A stretch of 64,000 bases of DNA from a phage: assembly GCA_024911895.1 (NCBI GenBank), contig GCA_024911895.1_3948.1, one strand, 5' to 3'. This document shows positions 1 through 47,764 of this stretch, piece by piece. Each line of letters opens with the position of its first letter. The first letter of the stretch is position 1. The translations under genes were made by a program, and so were the position numbers. The notes under the pieces were generated by a model, which was given only the letters and a program-made list of their open reading frames with translations, did not search any database and had not been told where the DNA came from.

Positions 1-1050
1 AAAAAAATATCTGTCTAGGATGTATATCTGCTTGGTAGCCCTTAACATCTCCCTTACAAGTGCTTTGCAAAATTTTAAAATATCCTTAACAATCTCTTAA
101 CAGTTCTCACAAGCTCTTAACATCTCTTCAGAGGTCTTAACAGTTTCTTAACAGAACTAACAAGGGTGTAACAGTTTCTTAACAGTTGATACATAGACTT
201 TACAGAGTCTTAACAGATGACTAACAAGAGCTAACAAGTTAATTTTAAAGAGTTATTTTGTTAAGATAATTAACAAGTTCCTAACAAGTGTTTAACCTTT
301 TTAACAAGCTGTTAACATGGTCACTATCTCTTTTCTTATCGTTCCCTTTCCTTTCTTAGTGATTCTTTAAATAGCCCTTTTAAAAGCTCTGTATAGCTCT
401 GTATAGCCCCTTTTAAGTCTCTTCCTAGTAATTACACCCCAACTGTACAGACACCTCCTTATAGGGCTTTTCAGGAGCTTTAAAGGCTATGCCAAAGGCT
501 CTTACAAGGCTTTTACGTGGTTTTAACAGAGATTTAACAAGTTGCTAACAAGTGCCTTAAAAGCATAACTATTTAGGGATTGTTAAGAAATTGTTAAGAA
601 AATGTTAAGGGGGCTAGCATTTACGTAACTTTTAAGCTACTTTTAAGCAACTTTATAGCCCCTATAACATACTTTTAAGACACTAACAATAGGATTCGAT
701 AGATTCCTATCTCATAGCCCTTTTTAGTTATTCACAAGATACTAACGAGATAATAAAGCTTACACCCTTATAAGATTCTTTTAAGGCTCTGGGAAGCTTT
801 ATAAAGGGCTTTTAAGGGTGAGGTAATGCAATCCCTTAAGTTAGGTTGATAAGGCTGTTATAGGGCTTTATAGAGCGTTTAAATGGTTGCCCTTCCCTTT
901 CGGGTTATGGGCTTATATTTAAGTTGATTTGATAAAAGGCTATAGAGTAGACTATAGAGTTATTGCTTTTTAAGGTATGAGATAGATTCTGACTTGTTAG
1001 GGAGTCTTTAAGATTCTGGGAAGGGATTAGATAGACGTAAAAAAGCCCCT
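1..1050. repeat. ~1 kb AT-rich non-coding region packed with short direct and inverted repeats (TAACAG/TAACAAG iterons, CTCTGTATAG x2, CTATAGAGT x2, TTGTTAAGAAA-type x3, several CTTTTAAG)
   Basis: no ORF with a ribosome-binding site; about 16 copies of TAACA(G/A) between ~40 and ~320, many spaced 10-11 bp apart; inverted copies (TTGTTAAG) at ~581-612. Confidence 0.6.
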
Positions 1051-1350: not shown

Positions 1351-1426
1351 TTTTGAATCTCCTAGTTTAAGGACTTTACTTAGTAGGGAGGTTATCCCTC
1401 CCGTTGATTAGTAATTTACTTGTTTT
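1351..1426 (-). repeat. family-A early cassette: hairpin GGGAGG..CCCTCCC plus conserved leader ending TAAACTAGGAGATTCAAAA-ATG
   Basis: near-identical ~80-bp unit also at 1912, 3134 and 4184, each directly upstream (minus strand) of a small ORF start codon. Confidence 0.7.
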
Positions 1427-1563
1427 GATATCTGATTGCAAGCAATTTTTTAAGCTTATCTATAAAGAATCTTTTAAGCTAATCCCTTTTAGATAAACCC
1501 CCTCGAACAAAGTTACCAATGTCAAGGGGTATTGTCAACACTTTTTAAAAAGTTTTTTGTAAG

Positions 1564-1911
1564 TTATTGATTAACTGATGAATATTTTTCAGGTTTTACA
1601 TAGCTGATACGCTGACTTTTTAGCAGGTCATCCCAGATTAACGCGGCGATATGGGCATAACCGGATTCACGTAAAAGTTTCATTGTTTTACTTCTCGTTT
1701 CAAAACGGCTTGCATAGTACTCACTATTCAGCGTCGTTTTATTCCCTTCGTTGTCTACATGGATAATCTGCATCACTTGAAAGGGGCTTGTGTCCTCGCC
1801 TTTGTTCCACTGCTCAAAGTATTTTAGGCACTGCATAGGTGACATCTTATCACTTACTTGAGTTGACCATGATGCGCCAGCTTTATCGGTAATTACGGTT
1901 ACATAAGCCAT
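1564..1911 (-). CDS. hypothetical early protein (115 aa)
   Basis: ATG directly after family-A cassette leader; no domain recognised. Confidence 0.55.
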   Translation of the reverse strand: MAYVTVITDKAGASWSTQVSDKMSPMQCLKYFEQWNKGEDTSPFQVMQIIHVDNEGNKTTLNSEYYASRFETRSKTMKLLRESGYAHIAALIWDDLLKSQRISYVKPEKYSSVNQ

Positions 1912-1985
1912 TTTTAGAATCTCCAGTTTAGGACTTTATTTAGTGGGGAAGGTCATTCCCTCCCCGTTGATTGACAATTTACAGA
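1912..1985 (-). repeat. family-A early cassette (hairpin GGGGAAGG..CCCTCCCC plus conserved RBS leader)
   Basis: sequence repeat shared with 1351, 3134, 4184; abuts the ATG of ORF 1564..1911. Confidence 0.7.
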
Positions 1986-2001
1986 TTTTTATCAGGCTTG
2001 T

Positions 2002-2235
2002 CTAGTCTTTTTCAATGATAATTTCATATTGACCGTCAACACTGTCGAAATAGATTCCATCGTCATCTTCTGTCTTAAAGTAGCATTGAATATCATCACT
2101 GGCGGGATAGTCTTGCCTTGCTATCTGGCAAACCTGAATAGCGTTTTCTTTACTCCCTGTAAACTCTTCAAGCCCTTTAAAATCGCATGAATGACCATTA
2201 CAAATTGAGAGGATAAGATAAATGGTTGTAAGCAT
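2002..2235 (-). CDS. hypothetical small Cys-containing protein (77 aa) with hydrophobic N-terminus, possibly secreted
   Basis: N-terminus MLTTIYLILSICNG; 4 Cys; preceded by hairpin 2253..2269 and AAGAGG RBS. Confidence 0.45.
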   Translation of the reverse strand: MLTTIYLILSICNGHSCDFKGLEEFTGSKENAIQVCQIARQDYPASDDIQCYFKTEDDDGIYFDSVDGQYEIIIEKD

Positions 2236-2301
2236 GATTTAAGCCTCTTAAAAGCCCCTGTGAGGGGCTAATCAGTGTTTATAAGGTGATTGCATAGGTT
2301 T

Positions 2302-2844
2302 TTAGAAAAAGCTTCTTAAATCTTTCTCTGTGATGTTTCCCGTTAATGTGTCCATGATGTCACAAAAAACCTGAATACTGTCCGACTGTTGAACACTTTT
2401 AACAAGTAGCTCTAATGTCTCCTCAAGATAGTTTAAATTTGGATTATCCAGTGAAGGAAGACAAAAAGGTGAAAACATTGCATTAAACTCGGTTACGTAA
2501 ACCTTTTTAATCCAATTTAAATCGAAGTATTCTGTAAAACTTGCTACGCCAGACATATTATCACAAGAATAATCATCATTTAGGTCATCCTCTGGGATAT
2601 CAAGTTCTAAGATAACAATATTTTGGGTTTTCATCTGGAAAGCTGCGGTGATAGCGGCATTACCTAGAGCCTGCTGGATACCTTCAGAGATTATTTCTTC
2701 CTCATCGTCGCCATAGATTTTATTTTCTGGATACACGTAAAAATTGCCGTCCATATCCGAACAATTCCATGCGCCTGATGGTTTATCACCGTTATTAATC
2801 AGGTTGAGGAAATTTTCTTGAGTAGTACCGTGAAAGCATTTCAT
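2302..2844 (-). CDS. hypothetical acidic early protein (180 aa)
   Basis: ATG after family-B leader; strongly acidic composition (runs of D/E). Confidence 0.55.
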   Translation of the reverse strand: MKCFHGTTQENFLNLINNGDKPSGAWNCSDMDGNFYVYPENKIYGDDEEEIISEGIQQALGNAAITAAFQMKTQNIVILELDIPEDDLNDDYSCDNMSGVASFTEYFDLNWIKKVYVTEFNAMFSPFCLPSLDNPNLNYLEETLELLVKSVQQSDSIQVFCDIMDTLTGNITEKDLRSFF

Positions 2845-2932
2845 TTTAGAATCTCCAGTTTAGGATTGAGTGGTAAAGCTCTTTATCTGGGGCTTACTTT
2901 ATCGAACTATAAGCCCCTTGTAAAGTACTTTA
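2845..2932 (-). repeat. family-B early cassette: hairpin GGGGCTTA..TAAGCCCC, palindrome AAAGTACTTT, leader ending AAACTGGAGATTCTAAA-ATG
   Basis: 88-bp unit essentially identical to 3642..3726 and 2 mismatches from 5845..5932; abuts the ATG of ORF 2302..2844. Confidence 0.7.
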
Positions 2933-3133
2933 TTAGTTATTTTTTACAACTTTTAAAACTGCAAGGTAACCTAAGCAATAAGAATCACCGAAAAGAGTCC
3001 TACCCATGAAAGAATCCTCTTTTATATCCTTTTCAGTGACGGTTTTTTCTACTCCGTGAAAAAGGACTATATCACCGACTTTGATATCTTTGATATGAGT
3101 AGTTTCAATGTTTAAACCGTTAATAATAGCCAT
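2933..3133 (-). CDS. hypothetical early protein (66 aa)
   Basis: ATG after family-A leader. Confidence 0.5.
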   Translation of the reverse strand: MAIINGLNIETTHIKDIKVGDIVLFHGVEKTVTEKDIKEDSFMGRTLFGDSYCLGYLAVLKVVKNN

Positions 3134-3212
3134 TTTTGAATCTCCTAGTTTAAGGACTTTACTTAGTGGGGAAGGTCATTCCCTCCCCGTTGATTAGTAA
3201 TTTACTTGTTTT
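3134..3212 (-). repeat. family-A early cassette; minus-strand TTGACA-18bp-TAAATT promoter-like element at 3199..3228
   Basis: repeat family shared with 1351, 1912, 4184; abuts the ATG of ORF 2933..3133. Confidence 0.65.
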
Positions 3213-3236
3213 AAAAACCAGTGTCAACAAAATTTT

Positions 3237-3641
3237 TCAGAGTTCTGCATAAATTGCATCGCAGACATCACGAAAATCATGATTTGTTAAATTACGTTGC
3301 AACCATGTTGCGAAAAAGTCAGCGATTGCAAAATTTGCGTCATACTCAACAGATAGCCACACTTTAACAGCAAAACGAAACATTTTTAAATCAAGCTCTT
3401 TATTCATTACCTTAGATTTGCCTAACATGTCAGACATCTCATGTTGTGCACCGTCTAGCGTGATACCTGCTGCAACGTCAGCCAGTGAGTTTTTTACGTT
3501 TTCAACGTCTAAGATAACACTTTGAATCTTCCCAATAATGTTTTGCAGTGTTTCGTCTGGCGCTGATGATGTGATAACATTAATCCGGTTAACGGTCAAA
3601 CGTGCTTTTAAGATTGATAACTCACGGTTATTAATAGCCAT
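3237..3641 (-). CDS. hypothetical early protein (134 aa)
   Basis: ATG after family-B leader. Confidence 0.55.
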   Translation of the reverse strand: MAINNRELSILKARLTVNRINVITSSAPDETLQNIIGKIQSVILDVENVKNSLADVAAGITLDGAQHEMSDMLGKSKVMNKELDLKMFRFAVKVWLSVEYDANFAIADFFATWLQRNLTNHDFRDVCDAIYAEL

Positions 3642-3726
3642 TTTAGAATCTCCAGTTTAGGATTGAGTGGTAAAGCTCTTTATCTGGGGCTTACTTTATC
3701 GAACTATAAGCCCCTTGTAAAGTACT
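3642..3726 (-). repeat. family-B early cassette
   Basis: identical to 2845..2932 over ~88 bp; abuts the ATG of ORF 3237..3641. Confidence 0.7.
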
Positions 3727-3999
3727 TTATGCTAAGTGTAATTTTTTACCTTTTACCATGATGTAACTTGATGCGTTATTACTGCATACATCTTGATAAA
3801 TTCTGCGCAAACGTCCTTCGTAGTATACTTTCCAGCTAGTTGGAATCTTTTTCCCGTATCCTGTAGCAGTTTTTTGCAGTCCTGCAAGTTGCCAATCCAG
3901 AATATGTTGTTCAGCTTGTAAATCCTCGAAGTGCATTACACCGTTCACATAGTGGCGTAGGGTTATGTTTAAAGTGCGACCGTTGTTAGTAGTGTACAT
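3727..3999 (-). CDS. hypothetical early protein (90 aa); start moved from the GTG at 4041 in the ORF track to the ATG at 3999
   Basis: ATG at 3999 is preceded by CTAGGAGCTTTTAAA, the conserved leader/RBS; position 4041 is GTG. Confidence 0.5.
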   Translation of the reverse strand: MYTTNNGRTLNITLRHYVNGVMHFEDLQAEQHILDWQLAGLQKTATGYGKKIPTSWKVYYEGRLRRIYQDVCSNNASSYIMVKGKKLHLA

Positions 4000-4024
4000 T
4001 TTAAAAGCTCCTAGTTTAAGGATT

Positions 4025-4183
4025 TTATTTTGACAATTCACTAATTAAGACATCAAAGATTATATCATTATCTGCTACAGTTGCAACACCAGTGATATAA
4101 TCAATTTCTAAGATAACAACAACTTTCGTACATAAACCATCATCTATATCATTCCAGACAACTTTATCACCTGCACAAAACAT
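4025..4183 (-). CDS. hypothetical small acidic protein (52 aa), below the ORF-track size cutoff
   Basis: own translation: MFCAGDKVVWNDIDDGLCTKVVVILEIDYITGVATVADNDIIFDVLISELSK; ATG directly after family-A cassette leader. Confidence 0.5.
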   Translation of the reverse strand: MFCAGDKVVWNDIDDGLCTKVVVILEIDYITGVATVADNDIIFDVLISELSK

Positions 4184-4264
4184 TTTTGAATCTCCTAGTT
4201 TAAGGACTTTACTTAGTGGGGGAAGCTCATTCCCTCCCCGTTGATTAGTAATTTACTTGTTTTA
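4184..4264 (-). repeat. family-A early cassette
   Basis: repeat family shared with 1351, 1912, 3134; abuts the ATG of small ORF 4025..4183. Confidence 0.65.
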
Positions 4265-4274
4265 AAAACCAAAA

Positions 4275-4607
4275 TCAAGATGAATTTTTTCGTTTGCTCA
4301 ATTCTTGAACTATTACAGCATGATAATCTTTTAAATCACTGATATTTAAAGCATTTATCAGAGAGTTATAATCATCGACAAGCTGAAAATCATCTTTGAA
4401 AATGTCGCTGATTTGATAAGTTTTTGATTGAAATCTGAAGCTCATTTCTAACCGTTTTATTTGTTCATCGCTTAAACGCTCCAGAAAGCTCATTACAAGG
4501 TTATTATTGACCTGCTGCGTGATTGCCTTACTTGCCAAATTATATGCGCTATAAGCCTTGTAAAGTGCTATAATGGCAATGATTGCAGTGATACCCATCA
4601 TTAACAT
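4275..4607 (-). CDS. hypothetical membrane protein (110 aa, N-terminal TM helix)
   Basis: N-terminal hydrophobic segment GITAIIAIIALY; RBS AAGAGGAAG; overlaps the stop of the upstream gene (coupled). Confidence 0.5.
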   Translation of the reverse strand: MLMMGITAIIAIIALYKAYSAYNLASKAITQQVNNNLVMSFLERLSDEQIKRLEMSFRFQSKTYQISDIFKDDFQLVDDYNSLINALNISDLKDYHAVIVQELSKRKNSS

Positions 4608-4897
4608 GGTGCTTCCTCTTTACGTGATACCTTGCCATTTACAGTTATCTCATAAGATTCTAATAAATCGCTTTTAGACTTTACAGGGCTTTTAAAAGTA
4701 TCATCATAGATATTGACTTGTAATACAGGTTTTTTATATTCCCTGCAACTATTCCATAAGCAAATCACTACACGACGGCCTTTGATTTTTCCGTGTAACC
4801 ATTCCATAACATCATGACTATTCCTTGATGTTTCAATGAAATCAATTTTATTAAGTAATTTGCTTAGATTTTCACGGACTTTATTTGATAGTTTCAT
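4601..4897 (-). CDS. hypothetical early protein (98 aa)
   Basis: ATG after family-B-like leader. Confidence 0.5.
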   Translation of the reverse strand: MKLSNKVRENLSKLLNKIDFIETSRNSHDVMEWLHGKIKGRRVVICLWNSCREYKKPVLQVNIYDDTFKSPVKSKSDLLESYEITVNGKVSRKEEAPC

Positions 4898-4984
4898 TTT
4901 TGAATCTACAGTTTAGGACAGTTGATAAATCTCTTTATCTGGGGCTATCTTATCAGCTTGATAACCCCGTGTAAAGAGGTCTAT
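4898..4984 (-). repeat. family-B-like early cassette (variant hairpin GGGGCTATC..GATAACCCC)
   Basis: conserved leader TTTTTGAATCTACAGTTTAGGA and hairpin; abuts the ATG of ORF 4601..4897. Confidence 0.6.
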
Positions 4985-5497
4985 TTAGTCCTTAAAGATA
5001 TTCATCACTGAATCTTTTAATGCTTCCAAGCGTTCTAATACTTCAGATTCTGCGTCTGCGTTGTTCACTTCCTCTTTTAGCCTGTCATCTAAATCATCGC
5101 CGTCACTATAACACCAATCAAAAGCGTAACCAATATAAAAACTGTCTAAAATTGTTTGACCATTTGCATCGACAACTTTCGCGGCAAGGTTGTATTCTGA
5201 AGCCTCTAAATCTCTTTCTAGTTCTTTCTGTAAGCTGATGTAAGCCTCTCTTGATGGATTTTCCCGGCCTTGTTTTGCATAGTCACTTGAAAGCTGTTTA
5301 AGGCTGTAATGTAAAGGGATTGCATATTTAAATTCATTACGCTGACAGTTGGGGTTTTTAATAGTCACGCCGCCATGATGAGTGTCTGTAAACTCCCAAT
5401 TATCAAGATTATGGCTTGCTTCAAAGCAATTAACAGCTTCGTAAATGATGGAAAATTTTTCTTTTACAACTTCAAAGGTAGCTTCTACAGTTTTCAT
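4985..5497 (-). CDS. hypothetical acidic early protein (170 aa)
   Basis: ATG after family-B leader; D/E-rich. Confidence 0.55.
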   Translation of the reverse strand: MKTVEATFEVVKEKFSIIYEAVNCFEASHNLDNWEFTDTHHGGVTIKNPNCQRNEFKYAIPLHYSLKQLSSDYAKQGRENPSREAYISLQKELERDLEASEYNLAAKVVDANGQTILDSFYIGYAFDWCYSDGDDLDDRLKEEVNNADAESEVLERLEALKDSVMNIFKD

Positions 5498-5586
5498 TTT
5501 TGAATCTCCAGTTTAGGATTAATGTGGTAAAGCTCTTTATCTGGGGCTTAAGATATCAACTTTTAAGCCCCCTGTAAAGTACTTTA
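5498..5586 (-). repeat. family-B early cassette (hairpin GGGGCTTAA..TTAAGCCCC)
   Basis: close copy of 6314..6401; abuts the ATG of ORF 4985..5497. Confidence 0.7.
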
Positions 5587-5844
5587 TCAGATTAAATTGC
5601 CAGTTAATGATAAGTGCATTTTATAGCCTTTTTTGGTAAACACGTTCACTTTACCGAGTGATTTTACACCTTTAAAAAGATTGTTTGAACTGCGTTTTAA
5701 GGTTAGTTGTTTATCAGCCTTCACGCCCCATCTTACAGCAGATGGTTTTCCGTTGTCAACAACTTTCCCGCCTAACTTTTTCGCCATGATGCGAGCGTCA
5801 TCGCGAGTTTTTGCAGTAATTACAACGTTTTTGATAATAGCCAT
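5587..5844 (-). CDS. hypothetical basic early protein (85 aa)
   Basis: ATG after family-B leader; K/R-rich. Confidence 0.5.
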   Translation of the reverse strand: MAIIKNVVITAKTRDDARIMAKKLGGKVVDNGKPSAVRWGVKADKQLTLKRSSNNLFKGVKSLGKVNVFTKKGYKMHLSLTGNLI

Positions 5845-5932
5845 TTTAGAATCTCCAATTTAGGATTTAGTGGTAAAGCTCTTTATCTGGGGCTTACTTT
5901 ATCGAACTATAAGCCCCTTGTAAAGTACTTTA
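5845..5932 (-). repeat. family-B early cassette
   Basis: 2 mismatches from 2845..2932; abuts the ATG of ORF 5587..5844. Confidence 0.7.
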
Positions 5933-6313
5933 TCAGTTAATTTTGAAAATTGTCACATAACCATCACTACCGATTATTTGAGATACTCCAGCTTTTTCTA
6001 CATGATAGCCCATATTTTCAAGATGGTAAACAGCATCATCGTAACCATATGCGCCACCCTGATAACGTCTCTTATCGCATCTTATCAGGTTTTTACCACG
6101 TCCTGCAAGTGCATTCAGTACAGCTTTTTCACTTGATAGCGTACCATCTAACATGGTTGCCGTGTAATGGTTGATTTTATTCCCGTTAATATCATACTTA
6201 AAATTGAATGCGTGAACAACAATCAATTTGCCGTTAAATTTTTCATCAAGTGACTTCTCCAGTGCGTTGCGGAAGTTGTCTTTGTTGATGAATTTCGGTG
6301 CACGATAAGCCAT
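5933..6313 (-). CDS. hypothetical early protein (126 aa)
   Basis: ATG after family-A-type leader (TAAACTAGGAGATTCAAAA). Confidence 0.55.
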   Translation of the reverse strand: MAYRAPKFINKDNFRNALEKSLDEKFNGKLIVVHAFNFKYDINGNKINHYTATMLDGTLSSEKAVLNALAGRGKNLIRCDKRRYQGGAYGYDDAVYHLENMGYHVEKAGVSQIIGSDGYVTIFKIN

Positions 6314-6401
6314 TTTTGAATCTCCTAGTTTAAGGGTTAATTTAGTAAAGCTCTTTATCTGGGGCTTAAGATATCAACTTTTAAACCCCCTGTAAAGTAC
6401 T
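6314..6401 (-). repeat. family-B early cassette
   Basis: close copy of 5498..5586; abuts the ATG of ORF 5933..6313. Confidence 0.7.
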
Positions 6402-19930: not shown

Positions 19931-20197
19931 TTATTTAGCCTTCTTATTACGTTTACGGTTACGAGCTTTCTTAGCTGCTCGTTTAATAGCTGCTGCACCA
20001 GACGGACGGTGGGCTTGTTTCTTACCACCTTTGCCACGGCCTACATAGATGTAAGGCTGCTGTTCAATTTGGCTTGTAAGAACCTGTGCAACCGCTGAAG
20101 CATCTACACCGACTTGCTTTCCAGTCATAGAAACAATTGCTGCTGCTTTTGCCAGTGCCTTCAAGAATCCAGCTTTCATATTACCTAAAATTCCCAT
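19931..20197 (-). CDS. hypothetical basic protein (88 aa) with Lys/Arg-rich C-terminus
   Basis: ATG at 20197, preceded on the minus strand by a (GA)12 tract. Confidence 0.5.
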   Translation of the reverse strand: MGILGNMKAGFLKALAKAAAIVSMTGKQVGVDASAVAQVLTSQIEQQPYIYVGRGKGGKKQAHRPSGAAAIKRAAKKARNRKRNKKAK

Positions 20198-20204
20198 TTT
20201 TTAG

Positions 20205-20228
20205 TCTCTCTCTCTCTCTCTCTCTCTC
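20205..20228 (-). repeat. (TC)12 on plus = (GA)12 on the minus strand, 8 nt upstream of the ATG of 19931..20197
   Basis: perfect 24-nt dinucleotide repeat read directly. Confidence 0.9.
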
Positions 20229-36442: not shown

Positions 36443-37255
36443 TTAGTGCAGTTTGTCACTAGTAATCTGTGATTGCTCTTTTTCAGCCATAGCTGAGACT
36501 TGCTTCACAAAATCGTCACCAAAGTTAATGCGAAGCTTCTCTTCAATGATTGAAGCACCAATGTTTACCAAAACATCATTGATTGCTTGCATACTGACAC
36601 CACCAGTCATCTCCTCAACGAACTCAATGGTTACACCCAACATCTGAGAAAGTTGGATTAGTGCAACGATATTCATCATTGTAGAGATAGCAGGAATCAT
36701 CAGAGCAACCTTAACCTGTAGTGGTTCTACATCAGCTACAGAATCATCTTTCACAGCTTCTGCTAAAGAGTCTTTAGTTTGCTGGATAATCTCTTTGATT
36801 CGTGGGTTTAGCTCTTCTACACCCCAATCAAGTTTTTCATATCGTGACAGCTTCTCTTCCATTCGCTTCTCAAGAGCAGCCATAACAGCACTCGTTGACG
36901 AAATTAACAGGTCAACTAGCTCATTATTATCTAAGAGCAGTAGCGAGTCTTTTTCTTCAGAGGTCATGGCAATATAGTCATTTTTCTGCATCTCATAGAA
37001 AATGAACTCTGCAAGAGCATCAACACCTACAACGATAGATGCTAAAGCAAGTTTTTTGTCACACAGCATCATATTAACCTGTTCTGCAAAAGCACCGTTA
37101 TCAGACTTGTCTTTAGGCAAGTTATAGCTTGCAGGCATAAACTGCTCTGTGTAGTTGTTTCCACGAAGAATCATAGCCATGCTTTCTACGGCATTGATTA
37201 AGAATGCTTCGTCAATACCTTTTTCTTCAAGCATCTGGTCTACAGTAGTATTCAT
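36443..37255 (-). CDS. hypothetical protein (270 aa)
   Basis: ORF. Confidence 0.5.
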   Translation of the reverse strand: MNTTVDQMLEEKGIDEAFLINAVESMAMILRGNNYTEQFMPASYNLPKDKSDNGAFAEQVNMMLCDKKLALASIVVGVDALAEFIFYEMQKNDYIAMTSEEKDSLLLLDNNELVDLLISSTSAVMAALEKRMEEKLSRYEKLDWGVEELNPRIKEIIQQTKDSLAEAVKDDSVADVEPLQVKVALMIPAISTMMNIVALIQLSQMLGVTIEFVEEMTGGVSMQAINDVLVNIGASIIEEKLRINFGDDFVKQVSAMAEKEQSQITSDKLH

Positions 37256-37256
37256 A

Positions 37257-37679
37257 TTATTTCTCTCTCAGTTGGTTAAGTTTCTTTCTAGAACATTTTA
37301 AGTTTTCTGATGAAGAAAAGTCAAGTGTCTTTTCAGAACGTGGATAGTAATGTCTATCCCAAGAAGTTTCAACATCATTAATCAGTGACGCTAGATTACA
37401 CAGGTCTGTACCACTTTGCAACTTCTTTTTAAGAGAATCTAGTAAAGCAACTGTATCTTTAGCTTTACGTCTCGCTGTAGCAACATCTTTCATATGCTCA
37501 AATACAGAGCATTTTAAGTCATCTTCATAGTTTTCAGACAACTCTATTTCATGTTGTATATCAACCATTCTCCTGTGATGGTGAGCATATTCCCGTTGAG
37601 CAGCAATGTCAAGTTCTTCCAACTTCTGCAAAGCTCTAACAAAGTCAGCTATGTCTGGGTGAACAAACATTTTCTGCAT
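37257..37679 (-). CDS. hypothetical protein (140 aa)
   Basis: ORF; AGAGG RBS. Confidence 0.5.
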   Translation of the reverse strand: MQKMFVHPDIADFVRALQKLEELDIAAQREYAHHHRRMVDIQHEIELSENYEDDLKCSVFEHMKDVATARRKAKDTVALLDSLKKKLQSGTDLCNLASLINDVETSWDRHYYPRSEKTLDFSSSENLKCSRKKLNQLREK

Positions 37680-37936
37680 GTAAGCCTCTTTTAAGTAACT
37701 ATTAAGTTTTAATCTTTTATCTTAACGTATTCTATACGTTATACTTTAAAGCTTTTTAAAAGCTATTAAATAATCTTTTAAGAGTTTTAAAGTATCTGTA
37801 TAGTTAAACTGTTAAGTAACCTTTTAAGTAAAAACCCACTTCGCAAAGATTAACACCTTGTCAAGTACATTGTCAACTTGCTTTTTATAATTTTTTGCAG
37901 TAATGTATGAGGTTAATGATTTTAGAGGGAGTAAAA
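37680..37936. promoter_or_regulatory. AT-rich divergent intergenic region between the leftward and rightward gene blocks, carrying copies of motifs from the 1-1000 region (TCTGTATAG, CTGTTAAG, CTTTTAAG)
   Basis: read directly; GAGGGAG RBS before the polymerase ATG at 37937. Confidence 0.5.
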
Positions 37937-40636
37937 ATGGAAAACGTAGATTTTAAAAACTTACATTTAGTTGGTGATACAGAAACTGATGGTTTACTCC
38001 TTGAGTTCACTAAAGTTCACGTAATGGCTTTCGCAGATTATAAATCTGACGATGAAGAGCCACCTGTATGGGTCTTTACAGATGAGCCTATCCTCGGTCA
38101 CAAGTACACTAAGTACATTAAGGGTGGTTTACGTGAAGGTGTTGAGTTTGCGTTAAAGGCAAAACGACTTTGTATCCATAACGGCCTCGGTTATGACTGG
38201 TGGGTCTTCAATCACATTGCACCGGATTTATGGAACTTTGATAATCCAAAATGTAAGCCGTGGAGTAATTTCTTTCAGGATTCTCTTATCCAGTCTCGTG
38301 TTCAGTGGATGGATAGACCAACTCCAAAGGGTTATAAAGGTGCTCATGGTTTGGCTGCATGGGGTGCTCGTGTTGGTGTTCGTAAACCAGAGATTGAACA
38401 TTGGGGTGTGTGGAATGCAGAAATCTTCACTCGTGTTGTAGAAGATATCCGTATTAACGCCAAAACTAAACGGGCACTTGATAATGAATATCTCAAGCTT
38501 AAGAAGTGTGGTATAGACACTTATGAAACTTACATGCGAGCTAAAGAAACATCTTTCTGGATGAGTCAACAGGCTATCAATGGCTGGAAAGCTGATAAAG
38601 AGCTTATGGAGTTCCATGTAAAGGAACTTGACAAGTTGACTAATGAGCTTGCTTCAGAGGTTGAACCACATCTACCTCCAACTATTAAGACCAAAGGTAA
38701 AGTTACTGGAGAAGAATTTGCAAGAGCTTGGAATGAGTATGTTGAAACATTTGGTCATGCAGATGGACTGAAGAGAATCACCAAGTATCCTAAGACAAAG
38801 TATCGTCAGCAGGTACGTAACGGTGAGATGCAGACATATGAAATCAAGCCATTTGGTAAGCCAACTACAAAGATTTTTAACATTGAAAAGAGAAATTGCT
38901 ATACACCAACCAACTCTGTAACTGGTGAAGAGTACAAGGAAGGTTTTGTAGCAATGAAGGATGCTCGTGCAATTTGCAATGAGTTGAATGCAAAGATTGG
39001 TAAGAAATGCAAAGACTGGAAGCCAGTAAAAACAGTTAAAACTGTGAAGTACTATAACAGTCATGTTGTTAACCACTTTGAGCTTGAGTCAAGTCGCTAC
39101 ACAGGTTTGATTGATGCACCATATACACCAATTGAGTTCGAAGTTTCTCGTATGACTCAGGTAGCAGTTGTTAAAGACTACTTGAAATCAGTTGGTTGGA
39201 TTCCAGATGACTGGAACTACAAGAAAGACTCAGATGGTCGTCCTGTTAAGGTTTGTCGTTTCAAAGACAACAAAAAGATGATTACCAAGCATCCTAAATG
39301 GCAGGAGATGGTTGAACGGTGTGGTTTGAGTTATGTTGAACATGAAGGTGTCCAGTACATTGAGCATAACTGGTCTGTGAAGAAGTACACAGATTTGCTT
39401 GAGCCTTGCTTAATCCGTACTTCACCAAAACTTACTGAATCATCTTATGATACGATTGAAGGTGAGCTTGGACAGAAGATTGCTAAGTACTATACTTTGA
39501 TGCACCGACGCAGAACTATTGAGAACTCAAAGGATGATGAAAAAGGTTGGTTGAACCAGATTCGTCCTGATGGTCGACTTAGTGCTGGTGCAATGGTGTT
39601 TGGTACTTCAACTGGACGTATGACACAATATGGTATTGTAAACGTACCGTCTGGTGCTGCTGTCTATGGAGCACCTATGAGGGAGGTATGGACTTGTGAA
39701 GATGGTACAGATATCATCTCCGTAGACCAAAACTCAGCACAGCTAGTTCTCCTTTGTAACTTTATGGGTGATGAAGACTTCACTAAAGCGGTAACTGAGG
39801 GTAAAGAGTCAGTAGAGTTCACTAAGCAAGAGGATGGCAGATACTACTGTAAGCATCTTGATAAGTATCTTAACCCAGAAACTGACAAGTATCTTCGTTA
39901 TGATGCTGAGAATGACCTCTATGAAGTCTATACAGGGACTGATGCACATACATTGAACAGTATTTACTTTGGTCTTAACAAAGAAGAGGATATTATTCTT
40001 TGTAGGGAGACACAGGATGAGGAACTTCTTCACGAGATTACAAAAGGTCGTAAGAAGAGCAAAAATGGCATCTACGCCCTGTTATTTGGAGCCGGAGATG
40101 AGAAGTTTGCGAAAACTATCAAGGCATCATCTACGGAAGAGGGTGCGTTGACTAAACAAACTTACTTTGTGCGTCTACCTAAGATTAAAAAACTGCTTGA
40201 TAGATTAGAGGAAGACTTCAAAGCAACTAAGAAAGCACTTGAAGAGGTTTTCGGAAAAACTTCTGCAATTGCCAAAGGTGGCTATATCAAAGTTGCTGGA
40301 GCGTGGTTATGGTGTAAATCTCCACATAAGTTATTGAATTACACACTTATGGGCAGTGAGGCGCAGGTGCAGAATGAGGGTATTAACTTGGCTAACAGAG
40401 AGTTAACAGAGCGCAAGCTTACAGTTCTAAATGGTAGGAAGCCTGCTATTGGTGCTAGGTGGGTCTGTAGTTACCACGATGAGGTCTCTTTAGAGGTTCC
40501 AACCAAAGATGTACCTGATGTTAAGGAGATTATTGATAGAATGTATGGTCAAGCATCAAAAAATCTTGGATTAAAGAGTAAGACGCTTGTTACAGGCACT
40601 GGTAAGGTAGGTAAGACATGGTACGCCGTACACTAA
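37937..40636 (+). CDS. DNA polymerase, family A (with 3'-5' exonuclease domain)
   Basis: exo motif LVGDTETDGL; motif A-like ISVDQNSAQLVLL; motif B RKKSKNGIYALLFGAG; motif C VCSYHDEVSLE. Confidence 0.8.
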   Translation: MENVDFKNLHLVGDTETDGLLLEFTKVHVMAFADYKSDDEEPPVWVFTDEPILGHKYTKYIKGGLREGVEFALKAKRLCIHNGLGYDWWVFNHIAPDLWNFDNPKCKPWSNFFQDSLIQSRVQWMDRPTPKGYKGAHGLAAWGARVGVRKPEIEHWGVWNAEIFTRVVEDIRINAKTKRALDNEYLKLKKCGIDTYETYMRAKETSFWMSQQAINGWKADKELMEFHVKELDKLTNELASEVEPHLPPTIKTKGKVTGEEFARAWNEYVETFGHADGLKRITKYPKTKYRQQVRNGEMQTYEIKPFGKPTTKIFNIEKRNCYTPTNSVTGEEYKEGFVAMKDARAICNELNAKIGKKCKDWKPVKTVKTVKYYNSHVVNHFELESSRYTGLIDAPYTPIEFEVSRMTQVAVVKDYLKSVGWIPDDWNYKKDSDGRPVKVCRFKDNKKMITKHPKWQEMVERCGLSYVEHEGVQYIEHNWSVKKYTDLLEPCLIRTSPKLTESSYDTIEGELGQKIAKYYTLMHRRRTIENSKDDEKGWLNQIRPDGRLSAGAMVFGTSTGRMTQYGIVNVPSGAAVYGAPMREVWTCEDGTDIISVDQNSAQLVLLCNFMGDEDFTKAVTEGKESVEFTKQEDGRYYCKHLDKYLNPETDKYLRYDAENDLYEVYTGTDAHTLNSIYFGLNKEEDIILCRETQDEELLHEITKGRKKSKNGIYALLFGAGDEKFAKTIKASSTEEGALTKQTYFVRLPKIKKLLDRLEEDFKATKKALEEVFGKTSAIAKGGYIKVAGAWLWCKSPHKLLNYTLMGSEAQVQNEGINLANRELTERKLTVLNGRKPAIGARWVCSYHDEVSLEVPTKDVPDVKEIIDRMYGQASKNLGLKSKTLVTGTGKVGKTWYAVH

Positions 40637-41121
40637 CACTTCAAGATTACAAGGATAATTTTATTTATGACCCCGACAAAGGGGTCTTCTACAACAAGTA
40701 TGACAGGAATAGACAAGCTAAAGCTGGACAGATTGCAGGAGGAAGTGATACTTATGGTTACAAAGTACTTAAATTCAAAGGTGTCGTAATAAAAGTTCAT
40801 CACCTCGTTTGGTGGTTCGAACATGGTTACAAACCCACTAAGATGATAGACCACATTGATGGTAACAGAAGTAATAATCATATCTCTAATCTTAGGGAGG
40901 CTGATAAGTATGGAAACGCCCAAAACAGGGTTAAGCAGACAGCTAACAAGTCAGGTTACAAGGGTGTGCATTATTTTAAAGACTGCAATAAATGGAGGGC
41001 TGCTATAACATGCAGAGGTAAAAGGACATCACTTGGTTTATTTGACACACCAGAAGAAGCCCATAAAGCTTACTGTGAAGCTGCTGTAAAACTCCACGGA
41101 GAGTTTGCAAAACTAAGTTGA
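40618..41121 (+). CDS. HNH homing endonuclease with AP2 domain
   Basis: IDHIDGNRSNNHISNLREA; AP2-like GYKGVHY...GLFDTPEEAHKAY...HGEFA; overlaps the polymerase 3' end. Confidence 0.7.
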   Translation: MVRRTLTLQDYKDNFIYDPDKGVFYNKYDRNRQAKAGQIAGGSDTYGYKVLKFKGVVIKVHHLVWWFEHGYKPTKMIDHIDGNRSNNHISNLREADKYGNAQNRVKQTANKSGYKGVHYFKDCNKWRAAITCRGKRTSLGLFDTPEEAHKAYCEAAVKLHGEFAKLS

Positions 41122-43982: not shown

Positions 43983-44195
43983 ATGGCTCTTAAAAAGTTA
44001 CATCCCAGAAGCGGTTATGGTAAGATAATTGATGATACAGATGGCTTTACAGTCTTTACAGTTATCTGTCAAGATGATTCACAGATTGAAAAGGCTCTTG
44101 ATGATTATCTTAATGATGAACGTGAAAAGGTCAGAGCTACAAACATAGACTCATTAATTGATACTTCACGTAAACGGAAGAAGAAAGATGAATGA
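43983..44195 (+). CDS. hypothetical protein (70 aa)
   Basis: ORF. Confidence 0.45.
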   Translation: MALKKLHPRSGYGKIIDDTDGFTVFTVICQDDSQIEKALDDYLNDEREKVRATNIDSLIDTSRKRKKKDE

Positions 44196-44487
44196 GGTTT
44201 TTGACCCTTATGCTCCACAAGATGATTGGGAGGCTGATAGAGAGGCTGAAATGGAGAGTTATATTTGTCCAATGGATGTAGACGAAATGAGAGACTTCGT
44301 TGCACATCGTTTTAAGAGAGAGATTAAATCCAGAGGTCTTTCTCAAGAGCAAGTCGCTAAAATTTGTGGTATCTCTCAAGCTCGTGTATCCAACATAATC
44401 CACCTCACTGGGAATGTCTCTCTTGAGTATATGTTGGAAGTGTGTGAAAAATTTGGTGTTAATTTCAATTTAAGGTTGGCAGATTAA
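44188..44487 (+). CDS. helix-turn-helix (XRE-like) DNA-binding protein; start at the ATG at 44188
   Basis: HTH segment LSQEQVAKICGISQARVSNII; GGAAGAAGAAAG upstream. Confidence 0.5.
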   Translation: MNEVFDPYAPQDDWEADREAEMESYICPMDVDEMRDFVAHRFKREIKSRGLSQEQVAKICGISQARVSNIIHLTGNVSLEYMLEVCEKFGVNFNLRLAD

Positions 44488-47082: not shown

Positions 47083-47125
47083 AACAAAAAGGCTCCTTTT
47101 TACGGGAGCCTTAAAATTTTATTTT
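47083..47125. terminator. hairpin (AAGGCTCC..GGAGCCTT) between the convergent blocks; probable bidirectional terminator
   Basis: stem 47089..47096 / 47105..47112, flanked by A-run and T-run. Confidence 0.5.
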
Positions 47126-47490
47126 TCAGTATTCTTTGTGTTCTTTTCAGTAATAGCTTGGAGGGCTGATACTGATTGAGCCAGATTATTTACACTGTCA
47201 GAGAATTTATCAAGAGTTTTGGTAAGTTTTGCGTTTTCACCCTTAACATTCTCTAACTGAACTTTCTGGTTCTCCATCCCTAGTTGAATCAATCTCATGT
47301 CAGACTGTAAATCACGAATAGCTGAATAATTACTTTTGGAATAATTATCTAGCTGCTGTAACTTTGTTGTGATAGACACTTCTTGTTTACCATCCGAAAC
47401 TTGCATGGTGGTATACATCCCAATAACACTAAAAATACCAACTACAATTGCACCAATATTATTTTTAAAAGCTTCCTCTAGCCACTTCAT
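47119..47490 (-). CDS. membrane-anchored coiled-coil protein (123 aa); lysis or fiber-assembly accessory candidate
   Basis: N-terminal TM IGAIVVGIFSVIGMY then heptad-rich region; GGGGGAGAAA RBS. Confidence 0.45.
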   Translation of the reverse strand: MKWLEEAFKNNIGAIVVGIFSVIGMYTTMQVSDGKQEVSITTKLQQLDNYSKSNYSAIRDLQSDMRLIQLGMENQKVQLENVKGENAKLTKTLDKFSDSVNNLAQSVSALQAITEKNTKNTEK

Positions 47491-47685
47491 TTATTTCTCC
47501 CCCTTAAAAGCTTTTTCTAAGTTATCTACGAACTCATCATCAATAGGTGTATCTGTCTTACTTGCGAGATATCTTGCGAGTCTGAAGAACACTTTCTCAA
47601 TCATGTATTCACTTAGAAGGGATAAAATGAGTTTCCAGAAGAAGCTACCTAGATTTTTTAGAAGAATTGCTAGGATTGTAGGCAT
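47491..47685 (-). CDS. small membrane protein (64 aa), holin-like topology
   Basis: hydrophobic N-terminal half, charged C-terminus; TAA-ATG junction with the downstream gene. Confidence 0.35.
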   Translation of the reverse strand: MPTILAILLKNLGSFFWKLILSLLSEYMIEKVFFRLARYLASKTDTPIDDEFVDNLEKAFKGEK

Positions 47686-47764
47686 TTAATCACCTCATCA
47701 GCCAAGATGGTGAGAATACCCATAAAGAATATTAACACCATCTTAACAATCAGTCAACAAGGGA

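Follow-up and report, generated by a model that had tools for sequence, protein, structure and literature searches.

A conserved octamer array at the divergent polymerase-gene junction of Felix O1-like phages and its counterpart at a second junction

The 257-bp intergenic region at positions 37680–37936 (hereafter, the gap) of a 64,000-nt stretch of phage DNA (hereafter, the window; contig GCA_024911895.1_3948.1) carries an array of octamers that are enriched, phased along the helix and conserved between genera, followed by a twin TTGACA element, and the same module is present at one more divergent junction of these phages. Our tentative reading, to which we give slightly less than an even chance, is that the gap is a conserved control region combining back-to-back weak sigma-70 promoters with an array of protein-binding octamers, this module being used at both junctions. 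We would describe the gap as one member of a pair of paralogous and deeply conserved Ounavirinae control modules, that is, as an undescribed instance of a familiar element and not as a new category.

Megablast searches with 37000–39000 and 1–1100 matched approximately 260 GenBank phage records and identify the window as a Felixounavirus, a Felix O1-like myovirus (identity of 97–99% in the polymerase region and 87–91% at the left end). In annotated relatives the products of the leftward block beside the gap are a 140-aa hypothetical protein, one labeled “minor tail protein,” a deoxynucleoside monophosphate kinase and a primase/helicase, while the rightward block starts with the DNA polymerase gene (pol). 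Based on the gene order of the relatives at this locus, the gap is the gene 96/97 intergenic region of Felix O1. It forms the junction at which a leftward replication block and a rightward polymerase block diverge; an earlier note on this DNA, made from the sequence alone, had described it as a divergent promoter region. The Felix O1 genome paper of 2010 assumes divergent promoters in the gene 96/97 region, reports no sigma-70-like sequence in the 96/97 or 40/41 regions, bar one candidate (P41) in the latter, detects the pol mRNA within 5 min by reverse-transcription PCR, and states that the temporal control of transcription is unknown (PMC3185647). In the literature searched, we found no transcript mapping for any Ounavirinae phage and no description of the octamer or iteron motifs in this subfamily; the PhageMaP essentiality paper on Bas63 is without intergenic data for that phage. 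No open reading frame (ORF) of 20 aa or more is contained in the gap, the four listed being the two flanking genes and 47- and 41-aa ORFs lying mostly within them, and no Rfam covariance model matches it, the only sub-threshold match (snoRNA) being inside a neighboring gene.

The earlier note had listed three short motifs of the gap as recurring in the left region of the window (1–1050), and all three are exactly where it placed them. CTTTTAAG is found at 37688, 37775, and 37821, with seven further copies in 1–1050; TCTGTATAG at 37795–37803, and also at 388 and 398; AACTGTTAAG at 37807–37816 is the reverse complement of the iteron CTTAACAGTT at 96, 136, and 178. Compared to whole-window dinucleotide shuffles, all three are overrepresented (27 copies against 5.1 expected, 5 against 0.8, and, for CTTAACAGTT, 4 against 0.49). 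As the gap, with its guanine-cytosine (GC) content of 25.7%, is the lowest-GC 100-, 150-, and 200-bp window of the full 64 kb (the minimum is 18% across 100 bp at 37692), local controls were needed, and 2000 dinucleotide shuffles of the gap sequence itself were used. Three copies of CTTTTAAG are then observed with 0.11 expected, four of the palindromic family CTTWWAAG with 0.18 expected, and seven of the wider family CTNTWWAG with 0.53 expected, and none of the 2000 shuffles reaches any of these values. On the contrary, the iteron core TGTTAAG/CTTAACA is present once with 0.10 expected (p about 0.1), hence the sharing between the gap and the left region is carried by the CTTTTAAG/CTGTATAG class and not by the TTAACA iteron. 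The octamer also exceeds local shuffles in the left region at 321–1050 (7 against 0.26) and at the second divergent junction considered below (3 against 0.07), which was not among the data that defined the motif.

So that no motif would be picked by eye, an unbiased vocabulary was compiled of all words repeated in 1–1050. With words of k = 7, the gap ranks first among 257-bp windows genome-wide (19 hits against 2.3 ± 2.3), and it exceeds its own shuffles at k = 7, 8, and 9 (p = 0.0003, 0.007, and 0.034, respectively). Sharing of any k-mers between the gap and 1–1050 gave mixed results against local shuffles (p = 0.18, 0.08, 0.004, 0.04, and 0.22 for k = 7 to 11), and was replaced by the vocabulary and the explicit motif tests; by both of these, the sharing proposed in the earlier note goes beyond base composition. 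The density of CTNTWWAG per kb is 35.2 in the gap and 23.8 in the left region, compared to 5.9 in the remaining intergenic DNA and 1.7 in coding sequence. The spacing of octamers has its mode at 11 bp, with 10 of 30 distances in the range of 9–12 bp (2.2 expected) and more at 20–21 and 31 bp, and this non-random pattern puts the boxes on the same helical face. Fourier analysis gave no significant AA/TT or GC periodicity in the gap; a test of AAG periodicity was confounded by the shuffle design, and the site-spacing statistics were used in its place.

In the alignment of 30 IMG/VR contigs and GenBank records of Felixounavirus, Suspvirus, and Mooglevirus, the cross-genus identity of the gap is 81–86%, compared to 62–67% at third codon positions of pol and 68–78% in the adjoining 140-aa gene. 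As it exceeds that of the third codon positions, the non-coding DNA of the gap is under strong constraint. The left two-thirds of the gap comprise 150 bp of 21% GC with at least nine TA-centered octamers (CTNTWWAG, mostly CTTTTAAG), two small palindromes and one inverted repeat (Table 1). Most octamer cores are fixed in position across the genera and the flanking C..G of CTNTWWAG is conserved, while the bases between the cores vary. The center of octamer 1 differs between genera (CTTTTAAG, CTTTATAG, CTGTTAAG, CTATTAAG), its CT..TAAG being kept. In the phased run, with spacings of 10, 11, 13, and 12 bp, four cores (37775, 37785, 37796, and 37821) are conserved in all three genera; the first reads TTTTAAAG in a few contigs of Felixounavirus and the last CTATTAAG instead of CTTTTAAG in Mooglevirus, in each case the only variant and a change of one base. 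The remaining site, CTGTTAAG at 37809, which lies within AACTGTTAAG, reads CTGTAAAG or CTATAAAG in Suspvirus and Mooglevirus. The stretch of CTTTAAAG and AGCTTTTTAAAAGCT is nearly invariant in the three genera, and the inverted repeat shows a compensatory double change in Mooglevirus (ATGTAT..ATACAT) and folds into an 8-bp RNA hairpin (–5.8 kcal/mol, z –2.7). A scan of IMG/VR for the palindrome CTTAAAAGNCTTTWAAG was uninformative, yielding too many chance matches in AT-rich contigs.

Table 1. Features of the gap and related elements of the window.
Feature	Position	Strand	Details
Intergenic region (candidate control region)	37680–37936		Between the leftward 140-aa gene (37257–37679) and the pol ATG at 37937
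Shine-Dalgarno sequence of the leftward gene and octamer 1	37685–37695	–	AAGAGG 37690–37685 overlaps octamer 1 CTTTTAAG 37688–37695; from sequence
Octamer 2	37699–37706	+	CTATTAAG; 11 bp past octamer 1; kept as CTATTAAG, CTATTAAA or CTATAAAG
Inverted repeat	37725–37739		ACGTAT-tct-ATACGT; center ~53 nt upstream of the leftward start codon
Palindromic octamer and overlapping palindrome	37744–37764		CTTTAAAG 37744–37751; 15-bp perfect palindrome AGCTTTTTAAAAGCT 37750–37764; from sequence
Phased octamer run	37775–37828	+	CTTTTAAG 37775, TTTTAAAG 37785, CTGTATAG 37796, CTGTTAAG 37809, CTTTTAAG 37821
GC-richer conserved block	37831–37857		AAAACCCACTTCGCAAAGATTAACACC; includes the candidate leftward –10
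Twin element	37856–37877		CCTTGTCAAGTACATTGTCAAC; two minus-strand TTGACA hexamers, the distal one the candidate leftward –35; unique in the window
Candidate leftward promoter	37876–37847	–	–35 TTGACA 37876–37871, 18 bp, –10 TAATCT 37852–37847; from conservation
Candidate rightward pol promoter	37878–37906	+	TTGCTT 37878–37883, 17-bp T-rich spacer, TAATGT 37901–37906
Shine-Dalgarno sequence and start of pol	37925–37939	+	GAGGGAG 37925–37931, ATG 37937–37939; from sequence and alignment
Class I iterons	40–607		[CT]TAACA (TGTTA on the other strand), 11-bp direct repeats; not common to the gap
Class I placement	43–317, 524–550; 579–607	–; +	Minus strand at 43–317 and 524–550; plus strand at 579–607 (TTGTTAAGAAaTTGTTAAGAAaATGTTAAGGG)
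Class II boxes	360–1000		At 360–420 and 620–1000, clusters of 2–3 at ~11 bp; same class as the gap
Cro/C1-type helix-turn-helix protein, candidate binder	44188–44487	+	Pfam HTH_3 6e-10; phrog_1373 “transcriptional regulator” 1.5e-26

In the right third of the gap lies the twin TTGACA element, with conserved though weak sigma-70-like hexamers on either side. The TTGTCAA cores of the twin element are invariant in the 30 contigs and its spacer is variable. The –10 of the candidate leftward promoter reads TAGTCT in Mooglevirus, keeping TAnnCT, and the annotators of AYO145A predicted the same leftward promoter by consensus. On the rightward side TTGCTT is invariant, while the –10 reads TAATGT, TAAGGT, TAGGGT, or TAGTGT across genera; T1, A2, and T6 are kept in both candidate –10 hexamers. 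The T-rich spacer of the rightward promoter forms, on the minus strand, an A-rich, UP-like tract directly upstream of the leftward –35. These features are consistent with weak promoters lying back to back in the gap, with predicted starts near 37840 (leftward) and 37913 (rightward). The longest pol ORF begins at 37907, and either 37907 or 37916 is given as the start in some GenBank records; as both of these upstream in-frame ATGs are closed in Suspvirus by a stop codon (ATG TAT TGA), and given the GAGGGAG Shine-Dalgarno sequence, the real start is that at 37937.

The second divergent junction, gp40/41, lies outside the window and was examined in phage dune (locus L012, 18524–18770). It heads the structural and lysis operons, has a GC content of 32.5% and is 93% conserved across the three genera. 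This junction contains a 17-bp palindrome CTTAAAAGgCTTTTAAG, as well as CTTTTTAG and CTTTTAAG, and a sequence, CCTTGTCAAGTACtTTGTCAAC, identical to the 22-bp twin element of the gap in 21 of 22 positions. Across the window and the fetched loci, the twin pattern is confined to these two junctions. The junctions are collinear over approximately 110 bp, with a local alignment score of 48 compared to 22.8 ± 3 for shuffles. At the second junction the inverted repeat is AGATATC-N6-GATATCT, approximately 56 nt upstream of the leftward start; its sequence differs from that of the gap’s repeat, but in both junctions the repeats sit approximately 55 nt from the leftward start codon and can fold. Candidate promoters are likewise found, TTGACA-17-TAGSCT leftward in all three genera and TTGACT-17-TACCAT rightward. 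By these sequence features the second junction is the strongest partner of the gap, above the left region, and the two appear to be copies of a paralogous control module. A T4 late-promoter motif, TATAAATA, is present in dune and FO1a on the leftward strand of this junction; it was rejected, as it is not conserved in Suspvirus and Mooglevirus. The first leftward gene at this junction (L012 18152–18523, minus strand) encodes a DUF5681 protein with a GRPKG motif, whose N-terminus (GNPSGRPKGSRNK, GRPKG) presumably resembles an AT-hook; this protein could be DNA-binding, possibly a small terminase, with AT-rich repeats as its target. No similarity was found between it and the 140-aa protein when these were compared as possible paralogs.

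Intergenic DNA of the Erwinia phage phiEa104 (Kolesnikvirus) cannot be aligned with the window, but boxes of the types CTTTAAAG, CTGTAAAG, and CTGTTAAG, with a common CTTTAAAG-N4-CTGTAAAGAC among them, are found at both its junctions, which constitute the two top octamer-density windows of that genome. Hence the octamer array is a subfamily-wide feature of divergent junctions: octamers keep their position in three genera and their type in one more. Boxes are found in either orientation, as well as in palindromic form (CTTAAAAGgCTTTTAAG, AGCTTTTTAAAAGCT), and at the second junction of phiEa104 they lie upstream of the gene-nearest promoter, on the side opposite to that in the window. Being bi-oriented, palindromic, and located on different sides of promoters depending on the genus, the boxes favor recognition at the level of DNA. 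The terminal region of phiEa104 has TCTTAACA and CTTAGAAG and almost no CTTWWAAG, while its junctions retain CTTTAAAG; the two therefore do not co-vary at this distance. Among the enteric genera, the CTAT-type boxes of Mooglevirus, present both at the junctions and in the terminal region, give a hint of co-variation in a small sample. In Erwinia phages an HNH endonuclease gene is located between the control region and pol, and insertion of homing endonucleases is therefore tolerated to the right of the junction; in the window, an HNH endonuclease with an AP2 DNA-binding domain (40618–41121) lies directly downstream of pol.

The left region contains the direct terminal repeat: the 618-bp repeat annotated in UAB_69 maps to approximately 32–649 of the window, and that of UAB_Phi87 (608 bp) was determined experimentally (PMC4837284). 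Two classes of motifs with different cores, TGTTA and CTTWWAAG, are present here (classes I and II in Table 1). Exact TGTTA-N6-TGTTA pairs of class I number 14 in the window, 11 of them within 1–1050, with three repeats at 579–607; they are absent from the second junction and from the gap, where each strand has a single TGTTA. Class II is represented by CTTTTAAG, CTTTATAG, CTGTATAG, and CTATAGAG, and its elements have the same order and orientation in the terminal regions of Suspvirus and Mooglevirus. These elements are arranged as CTTTTAAAAGCT-CTGTATAG-CTGTATAG-CCCCTTTTAAGT at 373–419, CTTTTAAG, CTTTTAAG, and CTTTATAG at 629, 640, and 651, and CTTATAAG and CTTTTAAG at 767 and 778, with more copies at 809, 866, 940, and 952. 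A terminator-like hairpin at approximately 1040–1075 was read by eye. Class II clusters are few beyond the three main regions; among them is a pair 11 bp apart (CTTAAAAGattCTTTATAG, minus strand) at 1471–1489, just upstream of the promoter of the last early gene (1102–1350). The best alignment between the gap and the left region pairs 37772–37820 with the reverse complement of 174–219 (modestly significant, p about 0.007 by shuffles), due to a common TnTwAAG skeleton and period.

Therefore the part of the earlier note that made the CTTAACAGTT iteron common to the gap is not supported, as the gap has a lone, chance-level copy, replaced by CTGTAAAG or CTATAAAG in Suspvirus and Mooglevirus, and no TGTTA-N6-TGTTA pairs. 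Its proposal of a common regulator of both sites is retained in part: the class II boxes at 360–420 and 620–1000 match those of the gap, while the iteron is not shared. Since the motifs are non-random, are under purifying selection across genera, and belong to the same class in the left region, a common DNA-binding factor is reasonable, and such a regulator is what we infer from sequence. Overall, the interpretation given in the earlier note is partly supported.

The octamers are probably protein-binding sites. In the mechanism that we propose, they would bind a sequence-specific protein assembling along one face of DNA just downstream of the leftward start, in an array that would begin approximately 12 nt into the leftward transcription unit and run to its ribosome-binding site. 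The bound protein might act by roadblock, bending, or looping to determine the output of the two transcription units, and the same module (octamers, inverted repeat, and twin element) would control gp40/41. The same protein could also bind class II octamers in the non-iteron part of the terminal-repeat region. A protein bound along the helix is suggested as the boxes are phased, bi-oriented or palindromic, located on the opposite side of the nearest promoter at the second junction of phiEa104, and present beyond the hairpin at ~1040–1075. Candidate binders are a phage helix-turn-helix (HTH) protein and a host factor recognizing direct repeats spaced by 11 bp. The HTH protein, encoded in the rightward operon and conserved in Felixounavirus, Suspvirus, and Mooglevirus, is the only recognizable sequence-specific DNA-binding regulator among 57 small ORFs scanned within 47 kb of the window; it was located by a targeted Pfam search, after a local phmmer search with model HTH proteins had proved noisy.

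Several observations weigh against this mechanism. No binding protein for the octamers was identified, and the HTH protein is not detected in Erwinia phages, which keep the octamers. The 140-aa protein was considered as a regulator and set aside as uninformative: it has no Pfam or PHROG function and homologs only in Ounavirinae, and its AlphaFold model is a helical hairpin (pLDDT 76) with no Foldseek match in PDB at E below 0.1. A consensus promoter scanner reported nothing convincing in the gap, the candidate hexamers included; a failure of consensus search would be explained if the promoters are weak, as we infer, and their assignment is based on hexamers with three of six matches and on conservation. 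The octamer consensus was chosen after viewing the data, and some copies of CTTTTAAG elsewhere merely adjoin ribosome-binding sites. Moreover, the array lies within the predicted leftward leader, which allows for a role at the RNA level, and an AT-rich array beside T7-like replication genes also fits a replication origin.

Such an origin, which would be activated by transcription as in T7, with a promoter reading into an AT-rich unwinding element and phased repeats binding an initiator or loader, is in our opinion unlikely. The gap has the lowest GC content of any window in the 64 kb, as expected for an adjacent unwinding element, is located between the primase/helicase block and pol in phages whose replication proteins are T7-like (PMC3185647), coincides with the minimum of the cumulative GC skew, and has short repeats in helical phase. 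However, the turn of the skew is fully confounded with the switch in gene orientation, the DnaA box TTWTNCACA is found eight times in the window and never in the gap, and neither an initiator gene nor a Rep/initiator domain was recognized in neighboring or small ORFs. Moreover, the units of 8 bp at 10–13-bp spacing differ from classical iterons of 17–22 bp, and the second junction, at the head of structural and lysis operons and with a lower AT content (32.5% GC), has the same module. We assign a still lower probability to the absence of any specific factor, when the gap would be AT-rich, flexible or curved promoter DNA (UP-like tracts, TpA steps) that favors RNA polymerase or is coated by H-NS, Fis, or IHF. 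TA-centered boxes are indeed highly deformable, the AT content is extreme, and an A-rich tract lies just upstream of the leftward –35, but the enrichment survives dinucleotide shuffles, and exact octamer cores with the flanking C..G are kept while neighboring AT bases drift; the IHF core ATCAA/TTGAT was not seen by eye in the gap or at the second junction, no scan having been run. Lower again, and in our view quite improbable, is an RNA-level element, in which the array is the leftward 5′ leader and CUUAAAAG-type boxes with the hairpin serve as a ribosome stand-by site or enhancer, or as RNase or stability signals. The boxes occur in both orientations and as palindromes, lie upstream of the gene-nearest promoter at the second junction of phiEa104, and are also found in the terminal region beyond the hairpin that was read by eye; the leader as a whole is not unusually structured (z –1.9) and has no Rfam match. 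All this speaks against a function in RNA, for which one may cite the location of the array at about +12 to +160 of the predicted leftward transcript, the overlap of its last box with the Shine-Dalgarno sequence, similar boxes adjoining ribosome-binding sites of other genes, and different inverted repeats, both foldable, at the same ~55 nt from the start codon in the two junctions.

Host signaling offers a further explanation, which we regard as very unlikely: the phage would read host two-component systems, the terminal region being a field of ArcA-P-type repeats, and the junction boxes, sites of another regulator of the OmpR/PhoB family. An ArcA-P site consists of two to five repeats ATGTTAAAAA with TGTTA as the most conserved core and a center-to-center distance of 11 bp (PMC4173790), and the architecture of class I iterons is similar to it, the resemblance being one of sequence. 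Under this explanation one notes TGTTA at every 11 bp in more than 20 copies, conserved from Escherichia coli to Erwinia phages (in phiEa104 there are seven TGTTA-N6-TGTTA pairs, all in the terminal non-coding region, L010 16472–17900), and head-to-tail CTTTTAAG-type boxes. The PmrA/BasR box consists of CTTAAG-like and xTTAAT-like hexamers 5 bp apart (PMC3973317); the only exact match to YTTAAK-N5-YTTAAK in the window is at 631–647 of the left region, while the gap has one-mismatch sites (37679, 37690, and 37766), boxes of this type are barely enriched in the window (23 against 13.7 expected), and they do not account for the octamer’s conserved leading CT. No paper linking ArcA to Felix O1-like phages was found in the literature searched. 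Should two-component control be true, a virulent phage binding lipopolysaccharide would gate replication, late transcription, and perhaps packaging or genome ends on the redox or envelope state of the host. A separate ArcA-operator-like site, TGTTG/TGTTA/TGTTA at 11-bp spacing (47733–47759, minus strand), overlaps a good sigma-70 promoter, TTGACT-17-TAATAT, upstream of small genes 47491–47685 and 47119–47490. The least probable explanation of all, in our estimate, is the literal version of the earlier note, one regulator for the TTAACA iterons of 1–620 and for the gap. It would account for the exact AACTGTTAAG in the gap, for the above-shuffle alignment of 37772–37820 with the iteron array, and for one exact copy in the phiEa104 gap of that phage’s own terminal iteron, CTGTTAAGAG. 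Its difficulties are the chance level of the single copy (p about 0.1) and its lack of conservation in Suspvirus and Mooglevirus, the absence of the iteron from the second junction and of TGTTA-N6-TGTTA pairs in phiEa104 outside the terminal region, and the different cores of the two motif classes.

Returning to control by weak divergent promoters and a protein-bound array, several known systems may be compared to it. In the early/late switch of phage phi29, the divergent promoters A2c/A2b and A3 are accompanied by multiple sites of p4 and by coating with p6, and a small phage protein at phased sites bends DNA and sets the output in both directions. Similar features are a short AT-rich region between divergent units, a virulent phage, host RNA polymerase, and several phased sites; on the other hand, no p4 or p6 homolog is present here, the p4 sites are inverted repeats CTTTTT-N15-AAAATG, and the module considered here is duplicated at two junctions. 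The primary origin of T7 consists of tandem promoters followed by an AT-rich region. As in the latter, a promoter here would read into an AT-rich stretch beside T7-like polymerase and primase-helicase genes, but the RNA polymerase is that of the host, the octamers and palindromes have no counterpart in T7, and the second copy of the module is away from replication genes. The Omega repressor of inc18 plasmids, a ribbon-helix-helix protein, binds cooperatively to contiguous heptads with a 7-bp period. Its arrays also comprise many short boxes, direct and inverted; here, in contrast, the boxes are of 8 bp with a period of ~11 bp, and no ribbon-helix-helix protein was found among the 57 small ORFs. 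ArcA-P operators of E. coli (e.g., icdA P1) are similar in having two to five short direct repeats at 11 bp that overlap a promoter or lie just downstream of it, and it is the left-region iterons that share their TGTTA core and spacing (PMC4173790). The octamers of the gap, unlike them, have no TGTTA core bar one copy, and their trailing G and leading CT are not part of ATGTTAAAAA.

Two more observations were made elsewhere in the window. At 1357–6401, intergenic modules of ~88 bp, nearly identical to one another, stand ahead of each small early gene, every module with a promoter (TTTACA or TTGACA, 17 bp, TAAAGT or TAAATT) and either an embedded GGGGCTTA...TAAGCCCC hairpin or a GGGGAGGGAATGACCTTCCCC hairpin in the leader; these modules correspond to direct repeats of 57 and 39 bp that the Felix O1 genome paper lists. 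At 20206–20227 a perfect (CT)11 microsatellite, (AG)11 on the coding strand, is located ~8 nt upstream of the start of the gene at 19931–20197; as it overlaps the ribosome-binding region, it is a potential slippage-prone switch of expression.

Felix O1 is a classical typing phage of Salmonella, and related phages find wide use in biocontrol and therapy. For the temporal control of Felix O1 transcription, the octamer and twin TTGACA module and the candidate promoters are testable cis-elements (CTCGCAAG is named as the mutant form of the octamer CTTTTAAG), and two classes of terminal-region motifs, easily lumped together when raw sequence is read, are now separated. If the iterons are sites of host ArcA, a virulent phage would, unusually, be wired to redox sensing by its host, and if the boxes are operators, they would provide a handle for engineering of expression in therapeutic phages.

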